A stretch of DNA of 64,000 bases from Bacteroidia bacterium (GTDB lineage: Bacteria; Bacteroidota; Bacteroidia; Chitinophagales; Chitinophagaceae), in the NCBI GenBank assembly GCA_030429205.1, contig JAUICZ010000001.1, positions 422,806 through 486,805 on the forward strand. Direction: 5' to 3'. The position numbers were made by a program, and so were the translations under genes. This document shows, piece by piece, positions 28,928 through 30,649 of the stretch (position 1 is its first letter; each line of letters opens with the position of its first letter). The notes beneath the pieces were generated by a model. The model saw only the letters and a list, made by a program, of their open reading frames with translations. It made no database searches and was not told the origin of the DNA.

Positions 28928-30649
28928 TTATAAAATCAATTCTTTCTCAGCCCACTCCAACCCCTTTTCTAGTTCCATTGAGTTGAATTCTAAATGTATT
29001 ACTCGCCTCTTTTTTTGATTGGTTGACTTTGAAGATGCATGCAACAATAATGGTTTCATAATATGAATACCTCCCTTATTCACTTTACAACTCACAAAAG
29101 CACCTGTCATTAGCTCTATATCTTTGTTGCTATGTACTTTTTTATGTGAGCCGGGTATTATTTTCAATGCACCATTTTGCTCATTAGTATCGTCTAAGTG
29201 TATTCTAATAATTATGGTCTTGTGTAAAACTTTATCCGGCGGTATTACACTGATAACATTACCCTTCTTAGTCCAGCCTTTATATCCCTTAATCTGTTTT
29301 TTTGTACTCACATTTATAGGAAGATCTTGATGCCATGTCACATACCAATTTGCGGTAGGTGGTTTATCAAAATAAATTGCTTTAGTAAGAAATAGCTGGT
29401 CTTTAAACTCGGATAAGATAGCTTTCAAGTTACTATTAAAACAAACTTCTTTTAATTGTGGTATTTCTTTAAACAATTGACGTATGGCATGTACATCCTT
29501 AAGATTTTCTTTTTCGAAGTACTTATATATAAGCCTACCCATTAGATTAACGGACTTATTGGTATACACTTTGCTGGTTATTATTGAGCCTCTCGCATCA
29601 AGCTTCCGAGGGTAGTTCTTGATTGATGATTCATTGAGCTCCACATCATATTCATCTATTGCTGCTTGCAATCGTTTTCTAATGACATTTCTTAATTTGA
29701 GCGGAGACATCACTTTCACTCTTTCTCCAAAAGCCATAATGTCTCTTTCAAGTTCAAAATTATGTTGCACAAATAGTGAGAACAAAACACCTTCATCATT
29801 TTTGTCAATCACTTTCTGGCTGTGGTGCAATGGCTTAGTAATCAAATAAGGTGCATTGTCGTGCGAGGATAGCAAAATTACTTCTTCCGGTTTCTGTCCG
29901 TCGTTCACAGTCACCCCGATTACATTATTAAAGTAGTTAGTGATCAAGTCTTCATCAAAACTCTTTAACGGCTTAGCTGATTGGGTTACTTGTTCCACCC
30001 TATCCAGTGCCAGCAGTGACCGCTCTCCCCTTTCATCTCGATCTCCTAAAACAAACCACCTGTTCCTATGCTCTTTTAGCAGAAAGGGGTGAAAAAGAAA
30101 TGTGTTCTTACTTCTTGCCTTGAATGACTGATAGGTAATCTCGATGCATTTTTTATTGAGTATTGCATTATATATCGGGTCTATATACTCCAACCCTCTC
30201 AAATGCTCGTTTTTCTCCAGATCTATTATAGAGCGTTCATGTGTTTTAGAAGTGTGAACTTTATCTTCTAGTTTTTGCACCATACTGCTCAACTCTTTAA
30301 AATGAGTAAAGCCTTTAAACTGCTTTAAAATATCTACCACTTCAGTAAGCTTTCCCAGATCTTGATCGGTGAGCGGTATATTGGTTATCGAGTAGTTTTC
30401 TTCTTCGTAGGTGTAATACTTTTTTTCTACTACTATTATGGGGGCACTGTAGCCTAAACGCTCACTCCTCATCATCTGTAAATCCATCTGCACCGTCCGC
30501 TTACTCACTCCTTTATCTATCCCTTCGTACTCATACAATGCATCAGAGCATGCTTCTACCAGATCATCCAGCGTCCATTTACGCAATCTGTTTTGGAGAC
30601 ACTTATCTATTGTATTGTAGCGTATAAGGGCGTTTCGGGTTACCGGCAT
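28928..30649 (-). CDS. fusion protein: HTH + WYL-domain transcriptional regulator (N-terminal ~340 aa) joined to a PhyH-like Fe(II)/2-oxoglutarate dioxygenase domain (C-terminal ~230 aa)
   Basis: The N-terminus NALIRYNTIDKCLQNRLRKWTLDDLVEACSDALYEYEGI matches the conserved start of Bacteroidetes HTH-WYL regulators. The C-terminal part carries the PhyH facial triad: WHQD (HxD), the GALKIIPGSH loop and a distal His (LLHAS). Confidence 0.6.
   Translation of the reverse strand: MPVTRNALIRYNTIDKCLQNRLRKWTLDDLVEACSDALYEYEGIDKGVSKRTVQMDLQMMRSERLGYSAPIIVVEKKYYTYEEENYSITNIPLTDQDLGKLTEVVDILKQFKGFTHFKELSSMVQKLEDKVHTSKTHERSIIDLEKNEHLRGLEYIDPIYNAILNKKCIEITYQSFKARSKNTFLFHPFLLKEHRNRWFVLGDRDERGERSLLALDRVEQVTQSAKPLKSFDEDLITNYFNNVIGVTVNDGQKPEEVILLSSHDNAPYLITKPLHHSQKVIDKNDEGVLFSLFVQHNFELERDIMAFGERVKVMSPLKLRNVIRKRLQAAIDEYDVELNESSIKNYPRKLDARGSIITSKVYTNKSVNLMGRLIYKYFEKENLKDVHAIRQLFKEIPQLKEVCFNSNLKAILSEFKDQLFLTKAIYFDKPPTANWYVTWHQDLPINVSTKKQIKGYKGWTKKGNVISVIPPDKVLHKTIIIRIHLDDTNEQNGALKIIPGSHKKVHSNKDIELMTGAFVSCKVNKGGIHIMKPLLLHASSKSTNQKKRRVIHLEFNSMELEKGLEWAEKELIL

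Follow-up and report, generated by a model that had tools for sequence, protein, structure and literature searches.

A WYL-type regulator with a built-in PhyH-type dioxygenase domain as the probable controller of RNA-repair genes in Bacteroidota

Why would a bacterial transcription factor carry a dioxygenase domain at its C-terminus, and which genes would such a protein control? The question is raised by a gene in a 64,000-nucleotide (nt) stretch of DNA from a Bacteroidia bacterium (GenBank assembly GCA_030429205.1, contig JAUICZ010000001.1, positions 422,806 to 486,805; hereafter the window), which an original prediction had read as a helix-turn-helix (HTH) WYL regulator fused, in one open reading frame (ORF) of 573 amino acids (aa), to a PhyH-type Fe(II)/2-oxoglutarate (2OG) dioxygenase and adjoining a tRNA-Phe gene and rtcB. 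Architecture and address both hold: the ORF is there, Pfam recognises WYL, WCX and PhyH, a winged HTH (wHTH) is seen with AlphaFold2 (AF2) and Foldseek, and the tRNA-Phe(GAA) gene lies 155 nt from the 5' end of the regulator gene in divergent orientation, with RtcB encoded further along the same plus strand. Our comparison of related loci suggests, with a probability of roughly two in three, that the fusion protein is a dedicated one-component regulator of a Bacteroidota RNA-repair regulon and acts through a 23-bp operator.

The proposed link to rtcB is the strongest part of the original prediction and gains support from conserved divergent synteny together with a common operator in front of RNA-repair genes. 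We called ORFs in 80 related loci, clustered the neighbours, assigned them to Pfam families and based the counts on the 69 loci for which 5 kb or more of upstream sequence was available. Recognised RNA-repair genes lie up to 8 kb upstream of the regulator in 60 of these and always on the opposite strand: RtcB (neighbour cluster c1) in 54 loci, an SPFH/Band-7 protein (cluster c2) in 34, RlaP, often as two genes in tandem, in 26, Ro60/TROVE in 14 and Hen1 in three. Because two loci (L040, L081) carry Pnkp-Hen1 without RtcB, the regulator, judged by gene content, goes with RNA repair as a whole rather than with any single ligase.

Many of these loci share a 23-bp palindromic element, ACTRCGCAAAAAGRCTGCGYAGT, with the perfect palindrome TGCGCA-N7-TGCGCA and the family consensus ACT(G/A)CGCAAAAAG(A/G)CTGCG(C/T)AGT. 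Of 78 upstream regions (300 nt each), 44 contain the 8-mer CGCAAAAA, as opposed to a maximum of 13 in shuffled sequences, and the 23-mer, with up to four mismatches, is found in 46 of 79 loci in one fixed orientation, about 35-60 nt and usually about 35 nt from the start codon of the regulator; by our own arithmetic its chance expectation is ~1e-5 per locus. The window has a single copy with 0 expected. Scanning the 80 loci (1.49 Mb, up to three mismatches) yielded 102 copies, 52 at the regulator's own promoter and 50 elsewhere, the latter all on the operon strand. Almost all of these distant copies sit 20-50 nt, or roughly 40 nt, before the starts of RtcB, Ro60, RlaP or Hen1, about 1 kb before SPFH with non-coding RNAs in between, or before a gene for an AAA+/M41 protease.

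A metagenome search with nothing except the operator, made as an independent test, gave 109 exact matches, and our results cover 80 of these 109 loci. In 55 of the 80 contigs the operator is flanked divergently by the fusion gene, nearly always at a distance of 34-57 nt; another 17 reach the contig end on the regulator side, and the remaining eight mostly have the operator before RtcB, RlaP, Ro60 or Hen1. The first gene downstream of the operator encodes SPFH (12 contigs), RtcB (10), Ro60 (10), a Hen1 unit (8), RlaP (2) or an unannotated 746-aa family (about 12). Operator, regulator and RNA-repair genes are thus one tightly co-occurring set, and binding of the operator by the fusion protein would be the obvious inference.

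The window itself follows this layout (Table 1), with the regulator on the minus strand and, on the plus strand, the tRNA-Phe-like gene, the tRNA-like elements, SPFH and RtcB in this order; the two protein genes are probably co-transcribed.

Table 1. Features of the fusion gene, its predicted protein and the divergent operon in the window
Feature	Position	Strand	Basis or remark
wHTH-WYL-WCX-PhyH fusion gene	28928..30649, stop codon included	minus	single complete ORF
wHTH region, nearly invariant in the family	30380..30649	minus	AF2, Foldseek, conservation
WYL (Sm-like) sensor domain	29969..30190, residues 154-227	minus	PF13280, invariant columns
WCX domain	29645..29890, residues 254-335	minus	PF25583 and profile alignment to the DriD C-domain (WCX)
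PhyH-type Fe(II)/2OG dioxygenase domain	28931..29617, residues 345-573	minus	triad H440/D442/H537, 2OG arginine R548
Pfam match WYL, PF13280	residues 154-222		43.7 bits, cut-off 21.8
Pfam match WCX, PF25583	residues 254-330		37.6 bits, cut-off 23.9
Pfam match PhyH, PF05721	residues 367-550		50.4 bits, cut-off 22
Candidate operator ACTGCGCAAAAAGACTGCGTAGT (TGCGCA-N7-TGCGYA palindrome)	30708..30730	plus	between regulator gene and RNA-repair operon
Putative -7 promoter box CACCTTTA (family CAnnTTTG)	30738..30745	plus	7 nt after the operator
tRNA-Phe(GAA)-like gene, operon head	30805..30880	plus	ARAGORN; Rfam tRNA, 58 bits
tRNA-like/YrlA-like elements, two T-arm (GGTTCGAATCC) and two D-arm like modules	30991..31174	plus	between tRNA and SPFH; sub-threshold Rfam
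SPFH/Band-7 protein, first protein gene of the operon	31455..32546	plus	Pfam Band_7, E 5e-29
RtcB RNA ligase	32606..34018	plus	Pfam RtcB, E 6e-83; 59 nt after SPFH

Is the fusion itself real? The ORF opens with an ATG (N-terminus MPVTRNALIRYNTIDKCLQNRLRKWTLDDLVEACSDALYEYEGI), and the 573-aa protein is 100% identical on three contigs of independent origin (NCBI, Logan assembly) that share the same neighbours. That orthologs are always split into two genes, which the original prediction had named as the outcome that would undo it, does not hold: all 120 best homologs (55-100% identity) are full length at ~575 aa, precomputed Pfam annotation assigns WYL, WCX and PhyH to 119 of them, the remaining one being full length too and annotated with WYL and WCX only, and tblastn, sampling one genome per species, detects a full-length single-frame relative (residues 1 to ~570) in 300 species genomes. 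The linker and the domain boundaries are conserved among family members as well. A sequencing or assembly fusion of a WYL-regulator gene with a neighbouring PhyH-enzyme gene is ruled out by the identical independent copies, the ~575-aa homologs and the 300 genomes, and we give it practically no chance. Carriers are essentially all Bacteroidota (Cytophagales, Flavobacteriales, Chitinophagales) and include, among cultured genera, Fulvivirga, Pontibacter, Rufibacter, Chryseolinea, Ohtaekwangia and Reichenbachiella, the nearest named relatives of our protein being those of Flavipsychrobacter; databases list family members as 'WYL domain-containing protein', 'phytanoyl-CoA dioxygenase family protein' or 'YafY / ectoine hydroxylase-related dioxygenase'. 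Just two full-length representatives (~577-579 aa) are found among the 150 best matches to the dioxygenase domain in a library clustered at 50% identity, as would suit a compact fusion family, probably of single origin.

The Pfam check that had been suggested for residues 1-340 came out in part as foreseen: WYL and WCX were matched, whereas no Pfam HTH model matches residues 1-150 and NCBIfam returns nothing specific for the fusion protein. The wHTH emerges instead from the AF2 model (mean predicted local distance difference test, pLDDT, 80.7; only 53-76 in the wHTH part), in which residues 11-81 form three helices (11-17, 27-42, 50-60) and a beta-hairpin wing (71-74, 78-81). Foldseek aligns residues 1-340 over ~340 columns with full-length DriD (E 2e-12) and also matches PafBC, and a profile of the N-terminal part likewise matches PafB/C and DriD. 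Within the WYL domain the motif RNRWFVLG is invariant, as are Y173, S175, K192, R195, R197 and W198, with R179 nearly so, and profile alignment to mycobacterial PafB/C (E 8e-7) pairs RNRWFVLG with RGRWYLVG. By predicted domain content (wHTH, WYL, WCX) the fusion protein is a class-A WYL transcription factor. The defence flavour that the original prediction lent to the WYL domain finds no support: PADLOC matches the fusion only to generic WYL models and, weakly and in part, to Cas3c, and gives nothing for SPFH or RtcB, and membership in a known anti-phage defence system was rejected, as these matches amount to no more than a generic domain.

A short HTH-only protein, which shares 53% identity with the regulator over residues 1-133, is encoded on putative viral or mobile contigs of IMG/VR (L089, 7869-8414, plus strand; L090; L091). 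It has no WYL, WCX or PhyH domain and is the sole relative found on these contigs; that it could compete for the regulator's operator is speculative.

What would operator binding do to transcription? In the 46 loci anchored on the operator, TTTG is nearly invariant 12-15 nt downstream on the operon strand, where it forms part of a CAnnTTTG box followed by AATCATCAAT, and the flank on the regulator side is conserved and AT-rich. We call CAnnTTTG a -7 box on the basis of the Bacteroidota -7 consensus, which we take to be TAnnTTTG along with a -33 element. The 46 aligned promoters show no recognisable -33 element of their own at the place where the operator sits, and we read the layout as a pair of divergent Bacteroidota promoters, each probably with a -7 box of its own and both with the operator in place of the -33 element. 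Just after the predicted transcription start, 35-55 nt past the -7-like box, 13 loci (L008, L009, L010, L012, L013, L021, L022, L045, L047, L050, L060, L071, L079) have a conserved GC-rich hairpin (for example CCCCCTCC-N8-GGAGGGG) on the operon strand, which is absent from the window and from L002 and could be the 5' stem of a non-coding RNA or an attenuator.

Turning to the enzyme half, the three motifs originally quoted are all present (WHQD at 439-442, GALKIIPGSH at 493-502, LLHAS at 534-538). That they hold a complete PhyH facial triad is right for H440, D442 and H537, which are invariant in 30 fused and in 25 standalone or fused sequences, and not for H502 of PGSH, which belongs to a family motif and is no metal ligand. 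The 30-member family alignment adds R548/R549, R482, H484, D486, N492 and G493 as invariant. In a profile alignment to human phytanoyl-CoA hydroxylase (PAHX), H537 corresponds to the histidine of LLIHGS and R548, 11 residues further, to the arginine of GFRK, presumably the 2OG-binding R275 of PAHX. With the PhyH-type double-stranded beta-helix fold predicted as well, the C-terminal domain is apparently a catalytically competent Fe(II)/2OG dioxygenase. A pseudo-enzyme was considered and rejected because every cofactor ligand is invariant.

Relatives of the dioxygenase domain (2356 representatives at E<=1e-3) are mostly standalone proteins of 230-250 aa, and other fusions in the clade are limited to truncated WYL fusions, Clp_N-PhyH and one weak PP-binding case, which are uninformative. 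Standalone homologs from Bacteroidota (~240 aa; for example from Cytophaga hutchinsonii, Chryseobacterium luteum and Pedobacter punctiformis) are 44-58% identical to the fused domain, have essentially the same invariant residues including those of the active site, and are probably its evolutionary source. Beyond the cofactor ligands, fused and standalone proteins have R390, K423, F427, K429, N434, W435, K462, H552 and E554 invariantly in common, and therefore probably share chemistry and substrate. They differ in that the standalone enzymes are unfused, encoded away from RNA-repair genes and neutral (median isoelectric point, pI, 7.1), whereas the fused domain (residues 345-573) is basic, with a median pI of 9.2 and at least 8.6 in 28 of 30 members; the N-terminal part of the regulator has a pI of 7.1. 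A basic fused domain is compatible, albeit weakly, with nucleic-acid contact. Among characterised PhyH-family enzymes, PHYHD1/FJS demethylate 2'-O-methyl nucleosides, that is, RNA-derived substrates (PMC12709175). They have the PF05721 fold and HxD...H chemistry in common with our domain; the relationship is remote (profile E 1.5e-3; structural score no better than for enzymes with unrelated substrates), and PHYHD1/FJS are standalone proteins of about 290 aa, inactive on RNA, whereas the fused domain sits in a regulator.

How, then, might the whole protein work? DriD and PafBC are WYL regulators that sense single-stranded (ss) DNA, the ligand residues being listed for DriD (PMC9186387), WYL regulators have been predicted to sense cyclic-phosphate-ended RNA and to regulate RNA repair (PMC9503650), and WCX is the dimerisation module in PafBC and DriD (PMC6789036, PMC9186387). 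By analogy, a WCX-mediated dimer of the fusion protein would bind the operator through its nearly invariant wHTH, and the WYL domain would sense a single-stranded nucleic-acid damage signal, most likely ssRNA or RNA fragments and possibly ones that stem from the operon's own tRNA-like RNA; binding of this signal would turn on the repair genes together with the gene for the regulator itself. We favour such a DriD/PafBC-like reading, with RNA damage as the cue, because of the synteny, the recurrence of the operator and the outcome of the operator-first search. As for the dioxygenase, we tentatively suggest, at rather less than even odds, a small polar compound connected with the signal, for example of the nucleoside or ribose type, as the molecule that it binds and oxidises. 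In this way the domain would produce, check or remove the effector, comparable to the enzyme halves of PutA, BirA and NadR. In these proteins, as in Ada, a catalytic and a DNA-binding domain are joined and catalysis or substrate binding sets the regulatory output; all four are non-homologous to the fusion. Taken further, an SOS-like response to RNA damage under a single master regulator may be imagined, in which WYL reads broken RNA, perhaps the operon's sentinel tRNA-like RNA, and the dioxygenase chemically recognises, makes or removes a signal in the form of an RNA-derived nucleoside or an RNA end, thus tying repair to oxygen, iron and 2-oxoglutarate status. Taken as a whole, this wider picture we hold to be rather unlikely.

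Whether the fusion protein activates or represses is the first point on which other explanations compete. It could be a repressor, similar to the WYL regulators CapW and BrxR, that occupies the shared operator and keeps both divergent promoters shut as long as no WYL ligand has released it; as the operator overlaps the -33 region of both promoters, ~35 nt from the start codon of the regulator, occlusion of RNA polymerase is conceivable, and WYL factors have been described as negative regulators of conflict systems (PMC9503650). Yet its best structural matches, DriD and PafBC, are activators, and 46 promoters with a -7-like box and without a -33 element look typical of activator-dependent promoters such as those of PafBC. 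Given the lack of a separate -33 element in these promoters and the activator role of the closest structural matches, we consider activation somewhat more probable, leaving repression as a serious contender on the short side of the odds.

The role of the dioxygenase is contested too. Instead of acting on a dedicated organic substrate, its Fe(II)/2OG/O2 centre might serve as a metabolic or redox sensor (of iron, 2-oxoglutarate, oxygen, peroxide or nitric oxide) that gates DNA binding, so that repair genes are induced by oxidative or nutritional stress. An invariant, complete cofactor-binding set and a gene context that yields no substrate would suit such a sensor; the nine further residues kept invariant in fused and standalone proteins (R390 to E554, above) fit a defined substrate pocket better, and the standalone enzyme with the same pocket occurs without any regulator, so we think a pure sensor unlikely. 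Less likely again, to our minds, is an AlkB-like RNA-repair enzyme that removes alkyl or oxidisable lesions or modifications from RNA held by WYL/WCX, with damaged RNA activating the regulator by the logic of Ada. The exclusive association of the fusion with RNA-repair genes, the shift of the fused domain to basic pI (9.2 vs 7.1), the action of PhyH-family enzymes on ribose 2'-O-methyl groups of nucleosides (PMC12709175) and a PhyH-fold protein in the trypanosomal RNA-editing complex (8fnc) all lend it some appeal. Conversely, the characterised PhyH nucleoside demethylases are inactive on nucleotides or RNA ends (PMC12709175), the closest solved relatives are all small-molecule enzymes, and an identical active site in standalone enzymes of unrelated context argues against a macromolecular RNA substrate.

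Several observations weigh against our preferred reading of a dedicated, signal-activated regulator of RNA repair. Nine of the 69 loci have no recognised repair genes directly upstream; five of these exceptions have the operator nonetheless, at the regulator's promoter in L025, L032 and L073 and elsewhere in L046 and L070, in the latter before a distant RlaP gene. The fusion protein is taken for the factor that would bind the operator because the two co-occur, and the call between activator and repressor leans on promoter geometry and on the -7/-33 consensus. RNA sensing by the WYL domain of the fusion is an assumption, and DriD binds ssRNA less well than ssDNA (PMC9186387). Finally, the neighbourhoods of five standalone dioxygenases show no common theme and no link to RNA repair; they include acyl-CoA ligase and beta-oxidation genes (Cytophaga), a Macro domain protein, an SDF transporter, AHSA1 and a transposase, and being so unrelated offer no substrate clue.

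The non-coding RNAs between operator and protein genes deserve consideration of their own. The tRNA-Phe-like gene, 74 nt downstream of the operator and shared with L002 (an 84% relative), carries U32 and G37, as opposed to C32 and A37 in three other tRNA-Phe genes of Bacteroidota, and is probably an operon-specific 'band 7-associated tRNA' rather than a housekeeping one. Such a tRNA (b7a-tRNA) was proposed by Burroughs and Aravind, as quoted in a preprint (bioRxiv 10.1101/312249). Because the layout of the module matches this proposal, the gene probably belongs to the repair module and stands under the same, presumably operator-controlled, promoter. At the tRNA position of other SPFH-type loci a conserved 'tRNA-Tyr(GUA)'-like family is found, with a long variable arm, a non-canonical D-arm and no U8; according to ARAGORN these genes lie ~150-450 nt upstream of the regulator on the operon strand (L007, L009, L012, L016, L023, L029, L065, L068), and the two copies tested (L012, L016) fall below the Rfam tRNA gathering threshold.

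The region that follows the tRNA in the window scores below threshold in Rfam, with 38 bits (E 1e-5) for YrlA and, twice, 26 bits for tRNA, and its folding energy is not distinctive (z -0.66). T-loop motifs are present in every SPFH-first locus, one to five per locus and on the operon strand only; in Ro60-first loci they lie just past the Ro60 gene, and RtcB-first and RlaP-first loci have none. Since Rfam at gathering thresholds gave no YrlA match in Ro60-type and SPFH-type loci, these Y-like RNAs are not confirmed as YrlA. On the other side of the regulator, 1-5 kb downstream and often behind a HigA/HigB-like pair, ten loci (L024, L035, L036, L039, L041, L048, L049, L050, L060, L071) have arrays of 4-12 tRNA genes (Asn, Lys, Pro, His, Tyr, Arg, Ser, Gln and others), some members being below the Rfam tRNA threshold; these may be spare or decoy tRNAs.

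Genes other than those for RNA repair are also met behind the operator or upstream of the regulator. The 746-aa protein encoded in L097 (2068-4308, plus strand), 233 nt downstream of the operator, has a weak Prok-RING_4 match only and, by eye, a C-terminus resembling a TerD-like domain; the family is present in about 12 operator-first loci (L094, L099, L104, L110, L121, L129, L136, L137, L148, L160, L164, L167), some from human gut metagenomes, and is a candidate new member of the regulon. In L025 (6174-8246, minus strand) and L032 the place of the repair operon is taken by an AAA+/peptidase M41 protein, FtsH-like and apparently soluble, with tRNA-like motifs between operator and gene, which attracts attention because SPFH proteins classically partner with FtsH. 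In two Pontibacter loci (L046, 3613-9746, minus strand; L070) the repair genes directly upstream of the regulator are replaced by genes for two large unknown proteins, a MoxR-like AAA+ ATPase and a protein resembling a SWIM zinc finger (domains assigned by eye).

Further genes were noted around the regulator. A DUF559/very-short-patch-repair-like endonuclease gene (~134 aa) lies beside it on the same strand in L004, L007, L015, L020 and L058, between regulator and operon. In the window, the regulator gene is directly followed downstream by a resistance-nodulation-division (RND) efflux operon (22615-28319, minus strand) for a membrane-fusion protein, an ACR_tran pump and an outer-membrane factor, which is not kept in other loci and is probably unrelated to the regulator. 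Past RtcB, two overlapping ORFs of 127 and 247 aa (34278-35343, minus strand) jointly span the 406-position Pfam model of DUF6051; as the independent Logan assembly has the same split, it reflects a genuine frameshift or pseudogene, not an error in the reads.

How does the system compare to known ones? The order wHTH, helical linker, WYL and WCX in residues 1-340 is that of DriD (Caulobacter) and PafBC (Actinobacteria), activators of the DNA-damage response whose one-component logic (WYL senses a nucleic-acid damage product and the repair regulon is turned on) may by analogy apply to the fusion, and whose operators, placed beside or over the -35/-33 region and also at the own promoter (PMC9186387), resemble our candidate operator in position. 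The fusion differs from them in sequence (14-16% identity), in a predicted regulon for RNA rather than DNA repair, in its likely RNA signal, and in the additional ~230-aa PhyH dioxygenase with intact cofactor residues after WCX. RtcR of Proteobacteria (rtcBA; rsr-yrlBA-rtcBA) is, like the fusion, a regulator divergently encoded to an RtcB operon and is activated by damaged RNA, namely tRNA halves with cyclic-phosphate ends (PMC7790460). It is composed of CARF, sigma54-type AAA+ and HTH domains and is not homologous to the fusion, which has an enzyme domain and in which Pfam and NCBIfam find no CARF, no sigma54-interacting AAA+ and no RtcR-type C-terminal HTH; the fusion is thus no member of the RtcR family, though its predicted role resembles that of RtcR. 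With a tRNA-like gene, tRNA-like/YrlA-like elements, SPFH and RtcB on the same strand, the window also has the make-up of the Band-7/SPFH-RtcB-b7a-tRNA module, to the extent that its definition is quoted in bioRxiv 10.1101/312249, and this make-up is kept in all SPFH-first loci. The main text of the 2019 WYL census (PMC6789036) uses 'oxygenase' 0 times and describes no architecture class with a dioxygenase after WCX. Our literature search found no description of a WYL-PhyH or WYL-dioxygenase fusion, of the operator or of the regulon, an earlier mention in Burroughs and Aravind 2016 being possible. That work is said to have defined both the Band-7/SPFH-RtcB-b7a-tRNA and the Ro60-Y RNA-RtcB repair modules. 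We are not aware of any characterised bacterial one-component regulator with an Fe(II)/2OG dioxygenase inside. As we see it, a WYL regulator in charge of a repair regulon is known, and what would be new is the RNA regulon and the built-in dioxygenase.

To our knowledge, RtcR of Proteobacteria is the sole worked-out case of how bacteria sense RNA damage and induce RtcB, Ro60 or Pnkp-Hen1 repair. Against this background the family appears as a compact, phylum-wide system with one regulator gene, one 23-bp operator and a small regulon that can be read from sequence and is predicted to comprise RtcB, SPFH with tRNA-like RNA, Ro60 with Y-like RNA, RlaP, Pnkp-Hen1 and a few unknown genes. It is because such a defined candidate operator and regulon accompany the fusion across the phylum that we regard it as more than a domain curiosity. 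The operator also gives a handle for assigning function to the uncharacterised genes behind it. If our reading is correct, the WYL paradigm, so far established for DNA damage with PafBC and DriD, would extend to RNA damage, and the dioxygenase built into such a regulator might point to a novel signalling molecule, or to RNA repair being connected with oxygen/2OG metabolism. Should the SOS-like version be true as well, the fusion protein would be without precedent among transcription factors in processing its nucleic-acid-derived effector by dioxygenase chemistry.

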